DNA from: Escherichia coli
Lineage (GTDB): Bacteria; Pseudomonadota; Gammaproteobacteria; Enterobacterales; Enterobacteriaceae
DNA length: 64,000 nucleotides
NCBI RefSeq assembly: GCF_003018255.1
Contig: NZ_CP027440.1
Reading direction: 5' to 3' (one strand)
This document shows, one piece after another, positions 25,095 to 36,020 of the stretch. Under the pieces are notes generated by a model. The model made no database searches. It was not told where the DNA came from and was given only the letters and a program-made list of their open reading frames with translations. A program made the position numbers and the translations under genes. The stretch's first letter is position 1, and the number at the start of each line of letters is the position of its first letter.

Positions 25095-28000
25095 ATGTTG
25101 TACGATAAATCCCTTGAGAGGGATAACTGTGGTTTCGGCCTGATCGCCCACATAGAAGGCGAACCTAGCCACAAGGTAGTGCGTACTGCAATACACGCAC
25201 TGGCCCGCATGCAGCACCGTGGCGCGATTCTCGCCGATGGTAAAACCGGTGACGGTTGCGGCTTGCTGTTACAAAAACCGGATCGCTTTTTTCGCATCGT
25301 TGCGCAGGAGCGCGGCTGGCGTTTAGCAAAAAACTACGCCGTCGGGATGCTCTTCCTGAATAAAGATCCTGAACTCGCCGCTGCCGCACGCCGCATCGTT
25401 GAAGAAGAGCTGCAACGCGAAACGTTGTCGATTGTGGGCTGGCGTGATGTCCCCACTAACGAAGGCGTGCTGGGTGAAATCGCCCTCTCCTCTCTGCCAC
25501 GCATTGAGCAAATTTTTGTGAACGCCCCGGCAGGCTGGCGTCCGCGCGATATGGAGCGCCGTCTGTTTATCGCCCGCCGCCGCATTGAAAAGCGTCTCGA
25601 AGCCGACAAAGACTTCTACGTCTGTAGCCTGTCGAATCTGGTCAATATTTATAAAGGTCTGTGTATGCCGGCGGATCTGCCGCGCTTCTACCTGGACCTC
25701 GCGGACCTGCGTCTGGAATCGGCTATCTGCCTGTTTCACCAGCGCTTTTCCACTAACACCGTACCGCGCTGGCCGCTGGCGCAGCCGTTCCGCTACCTCG
25801 CGCATAACGGTGAAATCAACACCATCACCGGTAACCGCCAATGGGCGCGTGCGCGTACCTATAAATTCCAGACGCCGCTGATCCCTGACCTGCACGACGC
25901 CGCGCCGTTCGTCAACGAAACCGGCTCTGACTCCAGTTCGATGGATAACATGCTGGAACTCCTGCTGGCAGGCGGGATGGATATCATCCGTGCCATGCGT
26001 CTGTTAGTGCCACCAGCCTGGCAGAACAACCCGGATATGGACCCGGAACTGCGTGCCTTCTTTGACTTTAACTCCATGCATATGGAGCCGTGGGATGGTC
26101 CGGCAGGGATCGTGATGTCCGATGGCCGTTTCGCCGCCTGTAACCTCGACCGTAACGGTCTGCGTCCGGCACGCTACGTCATCACCAAAGATAAACTGAT
26201 CACCTGCGCCTCTGAAGTCGGTATCTGGGATTATCAGCCTGACGAAGTGGTCGAAAAAGGCCGCGTAGGGCCAGGCGAACTGATGGTGATCGACACTCGC
26301 AGTGGGCGCATTCTACACTCGGCAGAAACCGATGATGACCTGAAAAGCCGCCATCCCTATAAAGAGTGGATGGAGAAAAACGTCCGCCGTCTGGTACCGT
26401 TTGAAGATCTGCCCGATGAAGAAGTGGGTAGCCGCGAACTGGACGACGACACGCTTGCCAGCTACCAGAAACAATTTAACTACAGCGCGGAAGAGCTGGA
26501 TTCGGTGATCCGCGTACTGGGTGAAAACGGTCAGGAAGCGGTCGGTTCGATGGGCGACGATACCCCATTCGCCGTGCTCTCCAGCCAGCCGCGCATTATT
26601 TACGACTACTTCCGCCAGCAGTTTGCTCAGGTAACCAACCCGCCAATCGACCCGCTGCGCGAAGCGCATGTTATGTCGCTCGCCACCAGTATCGGTCGTG
26701 AAATGAACGTCTTCTGTGAAGCAGAAGGCCAGGCGCACCGTTTAAGCTTTAAATCGCCGATTCTGCTCTATTCCGATTTCAAACAGCTCACGACGATGAA
26801 AGAGGATCACTACCGCGCAGATACGCTGGATATCACCTTTGACGTCACTAAAACCACGCTCGAAGCGACGGTGAAAGAGCTGTGCGACAAAGCCGAAAAA
26901 ATGGTACGTAGTGGCACCGTGCTGCTGGTGCTCTCCGACCGGAATATCGCTAAAGATCGCCTGCCGGTTCCGGCTCCGATGGCGGTTGGCGCGATCCAGA
27001 CCCGTCTTGTCGAGCAAAGCCTGCGTTGCGATGCCAACATCATCGTAGAAACCGCCAGCGCCCGTGATCCGCACCACTTCGCCGTGTTGCTGGGTTTCGG
27101 CGCGACGGCTATTTATCCATACCTTGCCTATGAAACGCTGGGCCGCCTGGTAGACACCCACGCGATTGCCAAAGATTATCGTACCGTGATGCTCAACTAT
27201 CGTAACGGCATCAACAAAGGCTTGTACAAAATCATGTCCAAAATGGGCATCTCCACCATCGCCTCTTACCGCTGCTCGAAACTGTTTGAAGCGGTCGGTC
27301 TGCACGATGATGTCGTGGGCCTGTGCTTCCAGGGGGCGGTTAGCCGCATTGGGGGGGCTAGCTTTGAAGACTTCCAGCAGGATCTGCTGAATCTGTCGAA
27401 ACGAGCCTGGCTGGCGCGTAAGCCTATCAGCCAGGGCGGCCTGCTGAAATACGTGCACGGTGGCGAATACCACGCCTACAATCCGGACGTGGTGCGCACG
27501 CTGCAACAGGCGGTACAGAGCGGCGAGTATAGCGACTATCAGGAATACGCGAAGCTGGTTAATGAGCGTCCGGCAACCACGCTACGCGATCTGCTGGCAA
27601 TTACGCCGGGTGAAAACGCGGTCAACATTGCTGATGTTGAACCGGCAAGCGAACTGTTTAAACGCTTCGATACCGCCGCGATGTCTATCGGCGCGTTAAG
27701 CCCGGAAGCCCACGAGGCGCTGGCGGAAGCGATGAACAGCATCGGCGGTAACTCAAACTCCGGCGAAGGCGGTGAAGACCCGGCGCGCTATGGCACTAAC
27801 AAAGTGTCGCGCATCAAGCAGGTGGCGTCCGGTCGCTTCGGCGTTACTCCGGCGTACCTGGTCAATGCCGACGTCATTCAGATAAAAGTCGCCCAGGGCG
27901 CGAAGCCGGGTGAAGGTGGTCAGTTACCGGGTGATAAAGTCACTCCTTACATTGCCAAACTGCGCTATTCGGTGCCGGGCGTGACGCTGATCTCCCCGCC

Positions 28001-29555
28001 GCCGCACCACGATATCTACTCTATTGAGGATTTAGCGCAGCTGATTTTCGACCTCAAGCAGGTTAACCCGAAAGCGATGATCTCCGTGAAGCTGGTTTCC
28101 GAACCGGGCGTAGGCACCATCGCGACTGGCGTGGCAAAAGCTTATGCCGATTTAATCACCATCGCAGGCTATGACGGCGGCACCGGCGCAAGTCCGCTTT
28201 CATCGGTGAAATACGCAGGCTGTCCGTGGGAGCTGGGGCTTGTTGAAACCCAACAGGCGCTGGTTGCCAACGGCTTGCGTCACAAGATCCGTTTGCAGGT
28301 CGATGGCGGCCTGAAAACGGGTGTCGATATCATCAAAGCAGCGATTCTTGGCGCGGAAAGTTTTGGCTTCGGCACTGGCCCGATGGTAGCGCTTGGCTGT
28401 AAATATCTGCGAATTTGCCACCTGAACAACTGCGCCACGGGTGTAGCAACTCAGGATGACAAACTGCGTAAGAATCACTATCACGGCCTGCCGTTCAAAG
28501 TGACTAATTACTTTGAGTTTATCGCCCGTGAAACCCGCGAGCTGATGGCACAGCTGGGGGTAACGCGTCTGGTGGATCTGATTGGTCGCACCGACCTGCT
28601 GAAAGAGCTGGACGGTTTCACCGCCAAACAGCAGAAACTGGCACTGTCGAAGCTGCTGGAGACTGCTGAGCCGCATGCTGGTAAAGCGCTCTACTGCACC
28701 GAAAACAACCCGCCGTTTGATAACGGCCTGCTGAACGCGCAGTTGCTGCAACAGGCAAAACCGTTTGTCGATGAACGCCAGAGCAAAACCTTCTGGTTCG
28801 ATATCCGCAACACCGACCGTTCTGTCGGCGCATCGCTTTCAGGCTATATCGCCCAGACGCACGGCGATCAGGGGCTGGCTGCCGATCCTATCAAAGCGTA
28901 CTTCAACGGCACCGCAGGCCAGAGCTTCGGCGTGTGGAACGCGGGCGGCGTGGAACTGTACCTGACCGGTGATGCCAACGACTATGTCGGTAAAGGCATG
29001 GCGGGCGGCTTAATCGCCATTCGTCCTCCGGTTGGCTCAGCCTTCCGCAGCCATGAAGCGAGCATTATCGGCAACACCTGCCTGTATGGCGCGACCGGTG
29101 GTCGTCTGTATGCCGCAGGCCGCGCGGGTGAACGTTTCGGCGTGCGTAACTCCGGTGCTATCACCGTGGTAGAAGGCATTGGCGACAACGGCTGTGAATA
29201 TATGACGGGTGGTATCGTCTGTATTCTGGGTAAAACCGGCGTTAACTTCGGCGCAGGCATGACTGGCGGCTTCGCTTACGTTCTCGATGAAAGCGGCGAT
29301 TTCCGCAAACGCGTTAACCCGGAACTGGTCGAGGTCTTAAGCGTTGACGATCTGGCGATCCATGAAGAGCATCTGCGCGGTCTTATCACCGAGCATGTTC
29401 AGCATACCGGTTCTCAGCGCGGTGAAGAGATTCTGGCGAACTGGTCAACCTTCGCCACTAAATTTGCGCTGGTTAAACCGAAGTCCAGTGATGTAAAAGC
29501 ACTGCTGGGTCACCGTAGTCGTAGCGCAGCAGAGTTGCGCGTGCAGGCGCAGTAA
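25095..29555 (+). CDS. gltB: Glutamate synthase (NADPH) large subunit
   Basis: The 1486 aa form starts at MLYDKSLERDN|CGFGLIAHIEG (Ntn-amidotransferase Cys after a short propeptide) and has FMN and 3Fe-4S domains. The ORF stays open upstream to in-frame ATGs at 24987 and 25002 (older, longer annotation). Confidence 0.97.
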   Translation: MLYDKSLERDNCGFGLIAHIEGEPSHKVVRTAIHALARMQHRGAILADGKTGDGCGLLLQKPDRFFRIVAQERGWRLAKNYAVGMLFLNKDPELAAAARRIVEEELQRETLSIVGWRDVPTNEGVLGEIALSSLPRIEQIFVNAPAGWRPRDMERRLFIARRRIEKRLEADKDFYVCSLSNLVNIYKGLCMPADLPRFYLDLADLRLESAICLFHQRFSTNTVPRWPLAQPFRYLAHNGEINTITGNRQWARARTYKFQTPLIPDLHDAAPFVNETGSDSSSMDNMLELLLAGGMDIIRAMRLLVPPAWQNNPDMDPELRAFFDFNSMHMEPWDGPAGIVMSDGRFAACNLDRNGLRPARYVITKDKLITCASEVGIWDYQPDEVVEKGRVGPGELMVIDTRSGRILHSAETDDDLKSRHPYKEWMEKNVRRLVPFEDLPDEEVGSRELDDDTLASYQKQFNYSAEELDSVIRVLGENGQEAVGSMGDDTPFAVLSSQPRIIYDYFRQQFAQVTNPPIDPLREAHVMSLATSIGREMNVFCEAEGQAHRLSFKSPILLYSDFKQLTTMKEDHYRADTLDITFDVTKTTLEATVKELCDKAEKMVRSGTVLLVLSDRNIAKDRLPVPAPMAVGAIQTRLVEQSLRCDANIIVETASARDPHHFAVLLGFGATAIYPYLAYETLGRLVDTHAIAKDYRTVMLNYRNGINKGLYKIMSKMGISTIASYRCSKLFEAVGLHDDVVGLCFQGAVSRIGGASFEDFQQDLLNLSKRAWLARKPISQGGLLKYVHGGEYHAYNPDVVRTLQQAVQSGEYSDYQEYAKLVNERPATTLRDLLAITPGENAVNIADVEPASELFKRFDTAAMSIGALSPEAHEALAEAMNSIGGNSNSGEGGEDPARYGTNKVSRIKQVASGRFGVTPAYLVNADVIQIKVAQGAKPGEGGQLPGDKVTPYIAKLRYSVPGVTLISPPPHHDIYSIEDLAQLIFDLKQVNPKAMISVKLVSEPGVGTIATGVAKAYADLITIAGYDGGTGASPLSSVKYAGCPWELGLVETQQALVANGLRHKIRLQVDGGLKTGVDIIKAAILGAESFGFGTGPMVALGCKYLRICHLNNCATGVATQDDKLRKNHYHGLPFKVTNYFEFIARETRELMAQLGVTRLVDLIGRTDLLKELDGFTAKQQKLALSKLLETAEPHAGKALYCTENNPPFDNGLLNAQLLQQAKPFVDERQSKTFWFDIRNTDRSVGASLSGYIAQTHGDQGLAADPIKAYFNGTAGQSFGVWNAGGVELYLTGDANDYVGKGMAGGLIAIRPPVGSAFRSHEASIIGNTCLYGATGGRLYAAGRAGERFGVRNSGAITVVEGIGDNGCEYMTGGIVCILGKTGVNFGAGMTGGFAYVLDESGDFRKRVNPELVEVLSVDDLAIHEEHLRGLITEHVQHTGSQRGEEILANWSTFATKFALVKPKSSDVKALLGHRSRSAAELRVQAQ

Positions 29556-30986
<1,431 letters not shown>

Positions 30987-31168
30987 GCCTGTCCCAGCGC
31001 CGCCTCCTCAGAAAAGAGTCGGCGCTGAAATTCTCCTTTCTTTCTGGAAAGCGCCTCGCATAATCTGAAGAAAACCAATGTAATACGCTCATCTGGATTG
31101 TTACCGGTAGATGCCCGGCGTATAGCTGATTCCATTATTCAACGCAGCGCCATATAAAGGGACAGATA

Positions 31169-32296
31169 ATGGAATCGCTCTCAGAGAGAACCTCAACAGG
31201 CTACCAGCAAATCCACGACGGTATTATTCACCTGGTCGATAGCGCCCGGACGGAAACGGTACGTAGCGTTAACGCGCTGATGACCGCGACATACTGGGAA
31301 ATTGGCCGACGAATTGTCGAATTTGAACAAGGTGGCGAGGCCAGGGCTGCGTATGGTGCGCAGCTAATCAAGCGACTATCAAAGGATTTAAGTCTAAGGT
31401 ATAAGCGTGGGTTCTCTGCAAAAAACTTACGCCAAATGAGGCTTTTTTACCTCTTTTTTCAACATGTTGAAATTCGCCAGACAGTGTCTGGCGAATTAAC
31501 ACCATTGGGAATTCCGCAGACACCATCTGCAGAATTCCCATCGGCAAAGATTTGGCAGACGCTGTCTGCCAAATCTTTCCCCCTGCCCTGGTCCACCTAC
31601 GTCCGTTTACTTTCCGTTAAAAACCCTGATGCCCGCAGCTTTTATGAAAAAGAGACGCTCCGCTGTGGTTGGTCTGTCCGCCAGCTAGAGCGGCAAATTA
31701 CGACCCAATTTTATGAGCGAACACTACTGTCACATGACAAATCAGCCATGCTGCAACAACACGCTCCTGCCGAGATGCATATTCTTCCGCAACAGGCGAT
31801 ACGCGATCCCTTTGTGCTCGAATTTCTGGAGTTGAAAGATGAATACTCAGAATCTGATTTTGAGGAGGCGCTGATCAACCACCTGATGGATTTCATGCTG
31901 GAACTTGGGGATGATTTTGCCTTTGTTGGTCGGCAGCGAAGGTTACGCATTGATGACAACTGGTTTCGGGTCGATCTGCTGTTTTTCCACCGCCGTTTAC
32001 GCTGCCTGCTAATCGTCGATCTAAAAGTGGGCAAATTCAGCTATAGCGATGCCGGACAGATGAATATGTATCTCAACTACGCCAAAGAGCACTGGACACT
32101 ACCGGATGAAAATCCGCCCATCGGTCTGGTTCTCTGTGCAGAGAAAGGAGCCGGCGAAGCGCATTATGCACTGGCTGGTTTGCCTAACACCGTTCTGGCG
32201 AGTGAATATAAGATGCAACTACCTGATGAAAAACGACTCGCGGATGAACTCGTTCGAACACAGGCGGTGTTAGAGGAAGGCTATAGACGCCGTTAA
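31169..32296 (+). CDS. yhcG: DUF1016-family PD-(D/E)xK nuclease-like protein YhcG
   Basis: The 375 aa ORF is recognised as YhcG. Its C-terminal half has a restriction-endonuclease-like core (EfleLKDE.. / FRVDLLFF / LLIVDLKVGK). Confidence 0.9.
   Translation: MESLSERTSTGYQQIHDGIIHLVDSARTETVRSVNALMTATYWEIGRRIVEFEQGGEARAAYGAQLIKRLSKDLSLRYKRGFSAKNLRQMRLFYLFFQHVEIRQTVSGELTPLGIPQTPSAEFPSAKIWQTLSAKSFPLPWSTYVRLLSVKNPDARSFYEKETLRCGWSVRQLERQITTQFYERTLLSHDKSAMLQQHAPAEMHILPQQAIRDPFVLEFLELKDEYSESDFEEALINHLMDFMLELGDDFAFVGRQRRLRIDDNWFRVDLLFFHRRLRCLLIVDLKVGKFSYSDAGQMNMYLNYAKEHWTLPDENPPIGLVLCAEKGAGEAHYALAGLPNTVLASEYKMQLPDEKRLADELVRTQAVLEEGYRRR
31471..31578. repeat. Three consecutive long palindromes inside yhcG
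   Basis: 31471-31497 is AATTCGCCAGACAgTGTCTGGCGAATT (13-bp perfect arms). 31506-31540 is TGGGAATTCcGCAGAcaccaTCTGCaGAATTCCCA (15-bp arms, 1 mismatch). 31546-31578 is AAAGATTTGGCAGACgctGTCTGCCAAATCTTT (15-bp perfect arms). All three share a GCAGAC/CCAGAC..GTCTG core. Confidence 0.9.
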
Positions 32297-32311
32297 TTTC
32301 AGCGGTTTCGA

Positions 32312-32336
32312 ATTCTCCAGACACTGTCTGGAGAAT
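32312..32336. repeat. Fourth copy of the yhcG palindrome family; also the likely terminator hairpin between convergent yhcG and nanQ
   Basis: ATTCTCCAGACAcTGTCTGGAGAAT has 12-bp perfect arms and lies 16 nt after the yhcG TAA. It is near-identical to the 31471-31497 copy. Confidence 0.85.
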
Positions 32337-32355
32337 CTTTAAAACGAACTAAGTT

Positions 32356-33688
<1,333 letters not shown>

Positions 33689-33692
<4 letters not shown>

Positions 33693-34378
33693 AGCACCGC
33701 CTTTTTCATCGCTGTGTTGTACCACTGACAAATGTGTTCAAGACGCGTAATGGCAGAACCGACCGTCACCGCCCACGCGCCGTGGCGCATCGCATCTGCC
33801 GCCTGAGCAGGCGTGTTGTAACGCCCTTCGGCAATCACCCGACATCCGGCGTCGCTCAACGTTTTCACCAGCGCCAGATCCGGCTCTTCTGGCGTTTCAG
33901 GCGTGGTATAGCCAGAAAGCGTAGTGCCAATAATTTCGGCTCCCAGCTTTTGGCATGCCAGGCCGTCTTCCGGCGTTGAGCAGTCGGTCATCGCCAGTAA
34001 ACCGTGATGGTGAATACGTGCCAGCAGCGTTTCAACAGGCACCGGACGCGGTCGGTCGGTGCCGTCAATGGCGATAATGTCCGCGCCCGCCTGCGCCAGC
34101 GCATCAACATCTTCAATATAGGCCGTGATGCGTACCGGAGAATCCTCCAGATCGCGTTTCACAATCCCGATAATTGGCACGCTCACCACCGCACGCGTGG
34201 CTTGCAGATTTGCCACACCTTCAATGCGAATGGCAACCGCGCCCGCCTGTTCTGCCGCTAATGCCATGGCGGCGACGATTTCGGGTTTATCGAGCGGGCT
34301 GTCCGGAACCGGCTGGCAGGAGACAATCAGGCCACCGTTAGCAGCGATTTTTTGATCCAGTTGTGCAAGTAACGACAT
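33689..34378 (-). CDS. nanE: N-acetylmannosamine-6-phosphate 2-epimerase
   Basis: The canonical 229 aa form starts at [23 protein letters not shown] and is preceded by AAGGGAAG. Confidence 0.96.
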
Positions 34379-34425
34379 ACATCTTCCCTTAGCGAAAGGC
34401 CCGGTACAGAGACCGGGCAACAGGA

Positions 34426-35916
34426 TTAACTTTTGGTTTTGACTAAATCGTTTTTGGCGCGGCCAAATGGCACGGCACCGCTAAATGGTTTGCCGTCGAT
34501 AGCGTCATGAGTACGCAATGCTTCCGGGCGCAGCCAACGCTGAACGCGGGAAGGCATATCCAGACCAATCAGCAGGATCACCACAAATGTCAGACTGAAC
34601 GAGAGCGATGCCAGCGCAGTACCCAGATCCAGACGTTGAGCGATCAACGCGCCGATGATTGGGGCCAGTGCACCGCCCAATGCGCCGACGTTGTAGGTAA
34701 AGCCCAGGCCCGCTGCACGCTGGTCGGTATCGAAATAACCGCCAATCAGTTTCGGTAAGATCCCGGCGATCCCTTGTCCAAGCATTTGCTGGAAGAACAG
34801 TAACAGACCGAGCACCCAGACGTTTGCGCCGCCAATCGCAAATACCGGAATAATCAGCAGCTGCGAGGCCAGCAGACTACAAACGTACGCTTTGCGGGTT
34901 CCCAGCCAGTCACCGAGGAAGCCACCGACGCAGCACCCCACCGCCGCGCCAAAGCCACTAAAGAACAGCACATTGGCGACAGTATGCGGGTCATAAGCCA
35001 GATCGGTTTTCAGATACGTTGGCAGCAGCGCCTGAATCGGCCATGAGTAGAGGAAAGCAAACAACACGACCACCATCAGCATTACGCCCGTTGGCCAGCG
35101 TTTGCCCGTACTCTGCACCATAAAGCTGATAAAGATTGCGGCGCATAACAGCCCGAGTACAGCGACGATTGCGGCATTTTGCAGGTTACCGGCGAAGCAG
35201 AACCACAGCGCAGTAGCCGCCGCCAGCGTCATTACGATATTGGCAATGCGATGTTCACCACGGTAAAGAATGTCTACCATCGTGCGTACTGGTGCTTTAC
35301 CCCCGTGTTTCTCTTTCCAGTCTTCCGCTTCCGGGATGTTTTTACGCAGCCAGAGAGCAAAGATGATTGGCAAAATGCCGATAAAGAACAGCGCTCTCCA
35401 GCCCCAGACCGGAACCACCAGACTATAGACCTGAGCGGCAACGACGGCCCCCACAGAGAAGCCTGAAATCAAAAAACCACTGGCTTTGTTACGCAGATGT
35501 TTTGGCCAGCTTTCAATGACATAGGTGGCGCTGGAACCGTATTCACCCGCCATCCCCATGCCGATGACCAGACGCGCGATAAACATGGTGATGTAGCCTG
35601 GCGCAAAGCCGCAGGCCAGCGTCCCGGCCGAGAAGAGAACGATGCTGGTGACCATTGCCAGACGACGCCCGTAGCGGTCACCCATAGCGCCGAGCATCAG
35701 GCCGCCGAACCAGCGAGAGATAAAGGCTGCGGAGATCAGACTTGCCGCCTGCACCGTCGTCAGCCCGAATTCACCCTGTACTTCGGTGAGTACCAGGGCG
35801 ATTAAAACGAAATCAAAACCGTCAAGCAGATATCCCAACCAGGCAGCGGAAAATGCGCGCCATTGTGCACGGTTGAGATGGCGATACCACGGGATATTCT
35901 GGGTTGTAGTACTCAT
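34426..35916 (-). CDS. nanT: Sialic acid:H+ symporter (MFS)
   Basis: The canonical 496 aa form starts at [19 protein letters not shown]. The MFS motif [10 protein letters not shown] is present. Confidence 0.97.
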
Positions 35917-35987
35917 TGTGAGTCTCCCGCGGTGGGCGATGCCCACACGCTTTGGTATGAAAATTGTAGGGTACAGATGCGTTTATT

Positions 35988-36020
35988 TCCCCTCACCCGG
36001 TAGGGGCGAGCGAGGGGAAA
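35988..36020. repeat. GC-rich imperfect palindrome (BoxC-like extragenic repeat)
   Basis: TTCCCCTCacccggtaggggcgagcGAGGGGAA lies between nanA and nanT. It shares the TTCCCCTCACCC...GCGAGGGGA ends with the copy at 53837-53869. Confidence 0.6.

Follow-up and report, generated by a model that had tools for sequence, protein, structure and literature searches.

A conserved, covarying hairpin inside the coding sequence of DUF1016/YhcG nuclease-like genes and its copies in Escherichia coli yhcG

The gene yhcG of Escherichia coli K-12, whose product is annotated as a "PDDEXK nuclease domain-containing protein" (COG4804), was predicted in 2005 to encode a PD-(D/E)XK nuclease with an E-D-E(I/L/V)K motif (PMC1189080). 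The association of its family, DUF1016, with restriction-modification (R-M) systems has been published (PMC9881135, PMC3424549), DUF1016 genes were reported to be enriched beside inverting hsdS genes (PMC9881135), and LSPA-6, a length polymorphism used for lineage typing of E. coli O157:H7, lies in yhcG; the LSPA-6 typing paper handled the locus as a length marker only and did not discuss the palindrome or its conservation in the family. Here, we analyzed a 64,000-nt stretch of E. coli contig NZ_CP027440.1 (hereafter the window), in which yhcG occupies 31169..32296 on the plus strand and contains an array of hairpin-forming palindromes inside its own reading frame. It is the same gene as K-12 yhcG, which likewise encodes 375 aa with three repeat units plus one further copy after the stop codon and is 94.9% identical in DNA over the matching part of window positions 31041-32400, but K-12 carries a gltF-yhcADEF island and an orphan hairpin between gltD and yhcG, whereas gltD abuts yhcG in the window. 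What is already known comprises the gene, the predicted fold of its product, the link to R-M systems and the length polymorphism; the family-wide hairpin is the new result, and no description of a conserved palindrome or hairpin in DUF1016 genes was found in the literature searched, with most subscription journals lying outside it. An earlier note on this DNA had tentatively raised the palindromes as a self-recognition or regulatory target; they turn out to be the important part of the locus, being family-wide and covarying and no E. coli curiosity.

The hairpin, with an 11-17 bp stem and a 3-nt loop, is encoded just before the LSWSHY/LPWGH segment of DUF1016 genes in at least 10 phyla, at the junction of the first three helices of the protein and this segment. 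A genome scan with a 7-sequence alignment collected 80 loci at 55-93% protein identity, which belong to Pseudomonadota, Acidobacteriota, Dehalococcoidia, Verrucomicrobiota, Planctomycetota, Thermodesulfovibrionales, Latescibacterota and others; these best 80 matches, together with a handful of distant ones, are a non-random sample of the family. In nearly every gene of the 80 loci, the linker contains, some 20 nt in, a perfect palindrome whose arms are 11-17 nt long, and the palindrome density of the linker is 7.6/kb, compared with 0.60/kb in approximately 920 kb of flanking DNA. As well, a hairpin is present at the equivalent place in homologues of 30-40% identity from Iodobacter, Leclercia, Aeromonas, Chryseobacterium, Legionella, Haliovirga and Wolbachia phage WO, and in weaker form in a Nostoc homologue of the same identity range, with stem sequences that are quite different from one subfamily to another. 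Of 93 genes, 80 have a best stem of at least 11 matched bp on the 5' side of the codon for the conserved Trp; a stem of 9 bp was reached in only 4 of 465 control windows taken from these genes. The conserved, covarying hairpin is a property of the whole DUF1016 family.

Pairing rather than a particular sequence is what has been conserved in the stem. In a structure-blind MAFFT alignment, the 13-bp helix is paired in 90.6% of cells, compared with 21-47% when the partner is slid, and 110 double-sided changes were counted against 36 in shuffles, none of the 500 shuffles reaching 110; three of the stem pairs are changed on both sides in 21-35 of 56 sequences. Because their codons pair, residues of the encoded peptide also covary (R..G, P..A, W..A, L..G, SE..RK, and IV..Q versus IL..E). 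Moreover, the codon preference of 31 GC-rich genes is overridden within the hairpin, where Ile is encoded by ATT in 97% of cases (19% elsewhere), Thr by ACA in 84% (14% elsewhere) and Ser by TCT in 64% (9.5% elsewhere), and therefore the constraint acts on the nucleic acid, not the peptide. The stem has thus been kept by compensatory substitutions against codon bias, and a hairpin that dictates amino acids in this way is an unusual constraint on a protein-coding gene. Where a gene holds several copies, the first is perfect in 35 of 57 cases and later copies mostly retain 7-9 of 11 pairs, which argues for selection on one copy.

The central 3 nt of the hairpin form an unpaired loop or spacer, the outer two loop bases being uncorrelated (odds ratio 1.2, p = 0.76), and the dyad symmetry accordingly stops short of the hairpin centre, a finding that fits all of the models discussed below alike. 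At the first loop position, 85 of 86 hairpins have a purine. A census of mismatches in 111 hairpins, which is phylogenetically clumped, mainly in related Dehalococcoidia, and is weak evidence only, yielded 10 G.T, 28 A.C and 39 other mismatches. The census shows no enrichment of G.T wobble, so that nothing points specifically to a sense-strand RNA structure, and it counts as weak evidence against an RNA helix formed by the sense strand.

When 1.42 Mb of loci were searched with a looser pattern, the element proved to be essentially confined to DUF1016 linkers and to extra copies in Escherichia. Viral contigs were scanned starting from the pattern alone, and roughly half of the palindromic matches fell inside DUF1016 genes or their remnants. 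Among the orphan palindromes of these contigs, several probably match only by chance, as generic hairpins of a terminator-like kind, and they do not count as evidence for trans targets. Outside Escherichia, no flanking copies occur within 10 kb, apart from a few solitary or second-gene copies (loci L007, L020 and L034), and a general cassette model is unsupported because flanking copies are essentially absent there. Family-type hairpins lying outside the query gene, or having a different core (ATTTCCGAATC act GATTCGGAAAT), were recorded in L034 (457 and 505), L016 (10412), L007 (11146 and 11194) and L020 (19868), and they probably represent second DUF1016 genes or remnants. The DUF1016 gene of an Aeromonas veronii plasmid (L086) has a second palindrome about 108 nt upstream (IVVSLARQL), and Nocardioides uses this same site (aa 66). 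In a comparison aimed at domain shuffling at the hairpin, identity of the N-terminal part correlated with that of the C-terminal part over 1596 pairs (r = 0.62), with mild outliers only, for instance L035/L036 (62% versus 91%).

In the window, the linker of yhcG holds a tandem array of three 39-nt (13-codon) units at 31457..31574 (plus strand; spacings of 39 and 39 in a repeat scan), which encode EIRQTVSGEL, GIPQTPSAEF and KIWQTLSAKSF. The array is an insert relative to the Pfam profile, since the DUF1016_N match spans 166 residues against 137 profile positions, and its peptide is predicted to be disordered, with a predicted local distance difference test (pLDDT) score below 50 for aa 102-133, the sole long low-confidence stretch of the N-terminal domain. 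Hairpin 1 (AATTCGCCAGACA g TGTCTGGCGAATT; 31471..31497) has perfect 13-nt arms, a DNA folding energy of -13.7 kcal/mol (z -7.8) and a covariance-model E-value of 9e-10, and it is homologous to the family-wide first copy, with which it was aligned in 55 other taxa. It is abutted by a perfect 16-nt palindrome, TTTCAACATGTTGAAA, read from the sequence at 31457..31472. Hairpin 2 (TGGGAATTCCGCAGAC acc ATCTGCAGAATTCCCA; 31506..31540) has 15 positions per arm, one mismatch and a 5-nt loop (E ~1e-4), and hairpin 3 (GGCAAAGATTTGGCAGAC gct GTCTGCCAAATCTTTCCC; 31543..31581) has 18 positions per arm and one mismatch (E = 2.5e-9). The palindrome array that the earlier note had reported inside yhcG is real: the window contains 7 instances of the core pattern where 0.79 would be expected, a count of 7 being reached in 0 of 100 shuffles, and the array as a whole folds at -65.2 kcal/mol (z = -9.5).

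A fourth copy of the 39-nt module follows the stop codon directly (32297..32336; 78% identity to unit 1 over 40 nt) and contains the hairpin ATTCTCCAGACA c TGTCTGGAGAAT at 32312..32336 (E = 9e-10). Read in frame, this module gives FQRFRILQTLSGES, which resembles the in-gene FQRIEILQTLSGES and is identical to the in-gene unit peptide of other alleles, and a read-through allele that covers the post-stop module exists (P0023). Its left flank, TTTCAGCGGTTTCGAA, is related to the 16-nt palindrome TTTCAACATGTTGAAA. The covariance model, although built mostly from other taxa, found exactly four sites in the 64 kb, all of them in or just after yhcG (E from 9e-10 to 2e-4), and the next match had E = 3.3. 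The inner stems differ among the four copies (CGCC, CCGC, TTGG and CTCC), while each is self-complementary. A promoter and terminator scan gave nothing canonical at any hairpin and did not report the post-stop copy, whose tail is CTTTAAAAC, on either strand; a simple intrinsic terminator is unsupported for this copy, as the terminator scan was negative and no terminator-like tail is present. A scan of the region against Rfam 15 gave only matches with E >0.4, the best (a microRNA model) scoring 21 bits against a gathering score of 100. A -1 frameshift site was also considered and rejected, since hairpin 1 is not preceded by an X XXY YYZ heptamer and no conserved feature was seen in the GC-rich homologues.

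In E. coli, copies of the hairpin coincide with the junctions of insertions, deletions and presence/absence variation. The earlier note had placed yhcG at a variable junction, and the 5426 complete E. coli genomes surveyed do differ there. A near full-length yhcG is present in 3347 of them, whereas 947 lack the gene and have a gltD-nanQ spacer with exactly one hairpin (the "empty site"), whose left flank is that of the copy after gltD and whose right flank resembles that of the copy after yhcG; about 1290 further genomes match only gltD and the orphan hairpin. In E. coli C7, for instance, the spacer is 67 nt long and holds a single perfect family hairpin, AATTCGCCAGACAGTGTCTGGCGAATT (L123 4988-5054). 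Another empty-site allele (L176) carries a flank substitution that lengthens the palindrome by one pair. In K-12 (BW25113, L003 935-959), the orphan hairpin lies 16 nt after the gltD stop, reads IRQTVSGES and precedes the gltF-yhcADEF island, and in K-12-like strains the whole gltF-yhcADEF-yhcG block is bracketed by hairpin copies. The window allele has no orphan family hairpin after gltD, whereas K-12 and the empty-site strains have one, as judged from the comparison with K-12 and C7.

Within the gene, alleles of 349, 362, 370, 375 and 382 aa differ by whole hairpin units, and a 307-aa allele results from a microhomology deletion that begins in the left arm of hairpin 1. An O157-like allele is about 78-80 bp shorter, and in one O157-like strain the array has suffered a deletion that shifts the reading frame. 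Both the O157:H7 length polymorphism of yhcG and the presence/absence variation between gltD and nan map to hairpin copies. Strains approximately 2% apart differ by a compensated swap of TCC/GGA to TGC/GCA in the non-coding post-stop copy. The yhcG of strain MLI023K1 is truncated a little way into the 3' arm of hairpin 3, beside a small open reading frame (ORF) annotated as a transposase; this 101-aa ORF (L121 3267-3572) begins about 95 nt after the cut point, and the insert ends in a hairpin of its own, GGCACAGAGC...GCTCTGTGCC. The insert may be an insertion sequence (IS)-like element that targets hairpins; Pfam gave no match for its "transposase" ORF or for the hypothetical ORFs of another junction variant.

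Several further observations concern damaged or altered copies of the gene. The K-12 record (L003 8130-9257) has Arg (AGG) at residue 141, turning PLPW into PLPR, where the window and the 7-sequence alignment have an invariant Trp, and its hairpin 1 contains an A.C mismatch; the laboratory K-12 allele may be impaired. In E. coli EC-129 (L177 26-2946), yhcG has no N-terminus and is preceded by an IS629 fragment and a reverse transcriptase of the group II intron type. At least 10 profile hidden Markov models of the PADLOC candidate PDC-S02, 107-193 positions long, match only the first ~100-120 residues of YhcG, and many family "proteins" in databases thus end at the hairpin, as would be expected if frameshifts or truncations, or else assembly errors, were common at the palindrome.

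The yhcG ORF has an ATG start and a 375-aa product, in agreement with the annotation of E. coli records that are 99.9% identical. Both DUF1016/YhcG domains were matched far above the Pfam cut-offs: DUF1016_N (PF17761) at aa 19-184 (147.8 bits, cut-off 32.8) and the YhcG_C PDDEXK domain (PF06250) at aa 208-360 (191.9 bits, cut-off 32.5), the latter encoded at 31790..32248 (plus strand). The catalytic codons on this strand are E245 (31901-03), D269 (31973-75), D284 (32018-20) and K286 (32024-26), with D269 lying within FRVDLLFF and D284-L-K286 within LLIVDLKVGK. The gene had been described in the earlier note as a solitary DUF1016 PD-(D/E)xK gene with these two motifs, a description that these matches uphold, and its catalytic residues are indeed conserved among homologues: in a 22-sequence alignment reaching down to 35% identity, E245, D269 and K286 never vary and only D or E occurs at position 284, and the catalytic columns are also invariant in the 7-sequence alignment and in two more distant subfamily alignments.

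Structure models of YhcG, which are of moderate confidence, give its C-terminal domain a restriction-endonuclease-like alpha/beta fold similar to Hjc, NucS and Cas4. Because the PD-(D/E)XK fold is combined with a complete metal-binding E-D-(D/E)xK site, YhcG is most likely a Mg2+-dependent DNA endonuclease. On the N-terminal side, codons 1-96 (31169..31456, plus strand, 5' of the hairpin array) are modelled by AlphaFold2 as three long helices (residues 4-54, 61-78 and 84-96; pLDDT ~80-95), and the second half of DUF1016_N (PLPWSTY...WSVRQLERQI...YER; 31580..31759, plus strand) as a small helical bundle that is a candidate ParB/KorB-like helix-turn-helix (HTH). The best fold matches of the N-terminal domain, though weak, are the DNA-binding HTH domains of ParB, Spo0J and KorB, so we infer that it may be a ParB/KorB-like DNA-binding domain. 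No NCBIfam model matches YhcG, no relative was found in the PDB by sequence search with the family profile, no Y1/HUH transposase domain was found by Pfam, the PHROGs entry of the family reads only "unknown function", and the literature searched holds no report of a biochemical function for DUF1016/YhcG. A single-protein search returned 24,775 family members as representatives of clusters at 50% identity (E <= 0.001).

The setting of the window copy agrees with what had been noted before, namely that gltBD and the convergent nan operon flank the gene and that no partner is adjacent. On the same strand upstream lie gltB and gltD (gltD, 29568..30986, plus strand, from its ORF and synteny comparison), and downstream the convergent nanQ-nanK-nanE-nanT, of which nanQ (yhcH) occupies 32356..32820 on the minus strand (ORF and annotation of identical loci). 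Downstream of gltD, at 30995..31027, a GC-rich hairpin (CAGCGCCGCCTC...GAGTCGGCGCTG) with a T-rich stretch behind it is probably the gltBD terminator. Neither the ORF list nor the RefSeq annotation of identical loci places a methyltransferase, an ATPase or a toxin/antitoxin partner beside yhcG, and there are no hsd genes among the ORFs of 28000-36000. Klebsiella sp. and Salmonella arizonae, whose GltD shares 94% identity, also have gltD and yhcG side by side, with a different gene downstream, and because of this recurrence yhcG is regarded as a long-resident chromosomal gene in enterobacteria. According to a previous study, the stationary-phase non-coding RNA G0-10703 is divergently transcribed and overlaps the 5' untranslated region of yhcG by 128 bp (PMC7967276).

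Elsewhere in the family, the contexts are more mobile. The link to defence islands for which the earlier note had suggested a survey holds loosely for the family, with its R-M operons, integrases, plasmids, prophage ends and PDC-S02 match, but not for the window locus, which lies outside any defence island, between gltBD and nan, in a synteny after gltD that is shared by three genera. YhcG matches PDC-S02 over its full length (PDLC04807, E = 3e-136). DUF1016 genes lie between hsdM and hsdS on Iodobacter and Aeromonas plasmids, between a methyltransferase and a DEAD helicase in Chryseobacterium, with AbiEii two genes further on, and directly after an integrase in Leclercia, where stop and start overlap; some homologues are found 2-4 kb from the ends of prophage-like contigs. 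Homologues were present on 521 of 72,556 plasmids versus 17 of 50,697 phage records. The 137 immediate neighbours of 72 non-enteric YhcG-clade loci, as delimited by a crude ORF caller, are heterogeneous, with no fixed partner, and at the family level are enriched for R-M and conjugation genes (N6_Mtase 5, MmeI_Mtase 4, Methylase_S 4, ResIII 4, TrwC 4, RadC 3 and AbiEii-like 3).

Some of these neighbourhoods have features of their own. The Aeromonas veronii plasmid (L086 5950-10498) carries a tandem-duplicated methyltransferase-DUF1016 pair inside a type I R-M operon. A set of DUF5682, VWA and ATP-binding protein genes stands beside a DUF1016 scrap at the gltD-nan junction of E. coli GN03139 (L122 1-3959), and DUF5682, VWA and SWIM zinc-finger protein genes stand beside a type I R-M system with DUF1016 on the unrelated Iodobacter plasmid (L084 1-2733); the DUF5682/VWA gene set may be a co-travelling defence-type module. 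In the only report found of a PDC-S02 representative being tested, the protein came from a cold seep and did not figure among the candidates protecting E. coli B from T4, T5 or T7. In a 2009 atlas, deletion of yhcG was reported to be synthetically lethal in combination with hypomorphs of dnaB, dnaN and parE, and YhcG was linked to HsdMRS and McrBC in a network (PMC2672614).

What seems to us the best explanation, though we would put it somewhat short of an even chance, is that this nuclease gene carries its own cis-acting palindrome, which its product recognizes through the HTH domain for autoregulation or self-anchoring. A dimeric YhcG would bind the intragenic palindrome through its N-terminal HTH domain, and binding would serve to autoregulate or to anchor a potentially toxic nuclease, in the manner of ParB and KorB with palindromes in or near their own genes. 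Since intrastrand hairpins would form there during replication, slippage, correction of one arm from the other, tandem duplication and deletion would also be concentrated at the element, processes that in Escherichia may have given rise to the 39-nt repeat polymorphism, the orphan copies after yhcG and gltD and the "empty site". The hairpin is in any case a defined candidate ligand or substrate for DUF1016 proteins, and because it supplies such a ligand, the function of the family is now directly testable.

Several points weigh against recognition of the palindrome by its own protein. The inner stems vary within one E. coli gene and so cannot be read by a sequence-specific dimer; to account for their symmetry, one has to assume in addition that intrastrand pairing or template-switch correction is at work. 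The ATT...AAT ends are all that stays constant from one subfamily to the next, and this constancy comes partly from conserved Ile and Gln/Glu/Lys codons together with pairing. In Rhodococcus, Nocardioides and locus L082, the hairpin is weak or absent at the site. Moreover, the mismatch count is phylogenetically non-independent and compatible with an RNA role, all copies, the post-stop one included, would lie in or beside the yhcG transcript, and a neutral, self-maintaining quasipalindrome is a possible account as well. A broader proposal, which we hold to be doubtful, is that DUF1016 proteins at large are HTH-guided PD-(D/E)XK nucleases forming self-contained modules of enzyme and site, with the linker hairpin as their specific ligand. 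The palindrome might then be an intragenic operator or inhibitor that silences a toxic nuclease until displaced, or alternatively the enzyme might cut at the palindrome and thereby drive duplication, deletion and cassette exchange. If this were true, approximately 25,000 clusters of genes associated with defence or mobile genetic elements would share an unrecognized nucleic-acid component.

In E. coli, mutation by quasipalindrome correction is well established, and the hairpin could be a neutral quasipalindrome in a permissive linker, where strand switching copies one arm onto the other and selection at the protein level only prevents deletion. The lack of G.T wobble enrichment, the fast compensated changes between near-identical strains even in non-coding copies, the high local rate of duplication, deletion and IS insertion, the unconserved stem sequence between subfamilies and the predicted disorder of the peptide are all consistent with such an origin. 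However, a hairpin at the same codon position in 80 of 93 genes from at least 10 phyla at 30-60% identity is difficult to reconcile with it, as are the better preservation of the first copy, which would not be predicted from a copy-blind mutational bias, the failure of comparable palindromes to accumulate elsewhere in the same genes, and the nearly invariant purine at the first loop base, although ACC is a common Thr codon in GC-rich genes; we regard neutrality as unlikely, though, if correct, it would be a striking natural case of a palindrome long maintained by template switching. An RNA element in the yhcG mRNA, acting between the two halves of the protein as a translational brake, a stability element or a processing site, or as a cis inhibitor RNA to which the nuclease binds, on the model of type III toxin-antitoxin (TA) systems but with the antitoxin repeats located within the message of the toxin itself, seems to us improbable to a like degree. 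The very stable predicted RNA structure of the array (energy and z-score as above), units of 39 nt near the size of the 36-nt ToxI repeats, a post-stop copy just 3' of the stop on the same strand that could belong to the transcript, the loop-like central 3 nt and a stem covariation as expected of structured RNA speak for this role, but G.U accounts for only ~0.8% of stem cells and is rarer than A.C, whereas functional RNA helices usually tolerate G.U. The stems are also perfect, unusually long and bulge-free, no Rfam family, terminator-like tail or upstream slippery site accompanies them, and the orphan copy persists in strains that lack yhcG.

The junction data raise the question of an att-like recombination site, in which the hairpin would be the crossover or target for insertion and excision of a DUF1016 gene and its cassette, possibly through breaks made by the nuclease itself. 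The empty site with exactly one hairpin and composite flanks (947 of 5426 genomes), the K-12 block between hairpin copies, the truncation and IS junction just inside the 3' arm of hairpin 3, the members whose start overlaps the stop of a preceding integrase gene or that lie at the ends of prophages, and the mild mosaicism of N- and C-terminal parts would all suit such a site. Slippage deletion between 25-nt direct repeats, however, explains the empty site equally well, flanking copies were not found within 10 kb outside Escherichia, integration at an internal position would split the gene, the central 1-3 nt are unlike the cores of tyrosine or serine recombinases, a PD-(D/E)XK nuclease alone is incapable of strand transfer, and the gltD-yhcG synteny across genera argues for residency, so that an att-like function appears very unlikely. 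As suggested in the earlier note, YhcG might instead be a solitary defence or repair nuclease. It could then be an abortive-infection or restriction-like effector or an enzyme that processes replication intermediates, and the palindromes would be incidental. In favour of this are the PDC-S02 match, the occurrence of the family in R-M operons and mobile elements (PMC9881135, PMC3424549), the reported synthetic lethality with replication hypomorphs and the HsdMRS/McrBC network link (PMC2672614), and the Hjc/NucS/Cas4-like fold. But it leaves a family-wide, codon-bias-defying palindrome unexplained, the reported PDC-S02 representative was not protective against T4, T5 and T7, the window copy is outside a defence island and ~17% of E. 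coli genomes are without yhcG, and we consider it rather improbable.

Besides K-12 yhcG, the described systems closest to the window copy include the DUF1016 genes embedded in type I R-M operons, either as hsdM-DUF1016-hsdS or beside MmeI-like/type IIG enzymes, which share the same two domains, the catalytic motif and the position of the palindrome; unlike them, the window copy has no R-M partner and carries a three-unit array together with the post-stop copy. Short tandem structured repeats linked to a nuclease gene are also found in ToxIN, a type III TA system, whose ToxI repeats are 36 nt long compared with 39 nt in yhcG. However, the ToxIN repeats lie upstream of the gene behind a terminator, and ToxN has an endoRNase fold, whereas those of yhcG lie inside the coding sequence without a terminator, accompany a DNA-nuclease fold and show no G.U signature, and most DUF1016 members have a single-copy hairpin in place of tandem repeats. 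Repetitive extragenic palindromic (REP) elements are similar in being imperfect hairpin palindromes of ~25-35 nt that occur in small clusters and attract IS insertions and rearrangements, but, unlike REPtrons, yhcG has no RAYT/Y1 transposase, and its copies are in frame, translated and confined to the DUF1016 gene and its flanks. Finally, the ParB/Spo0J-parS and KorB-operator systems, whose HTH proteins bind palindromes in or near their own genes, provide the best, though weak, fold matches for the N-terminal domain; the palindrome of yhcG lies within the coding sequence of the protein itself, as a parS site lies within that of spo0J.

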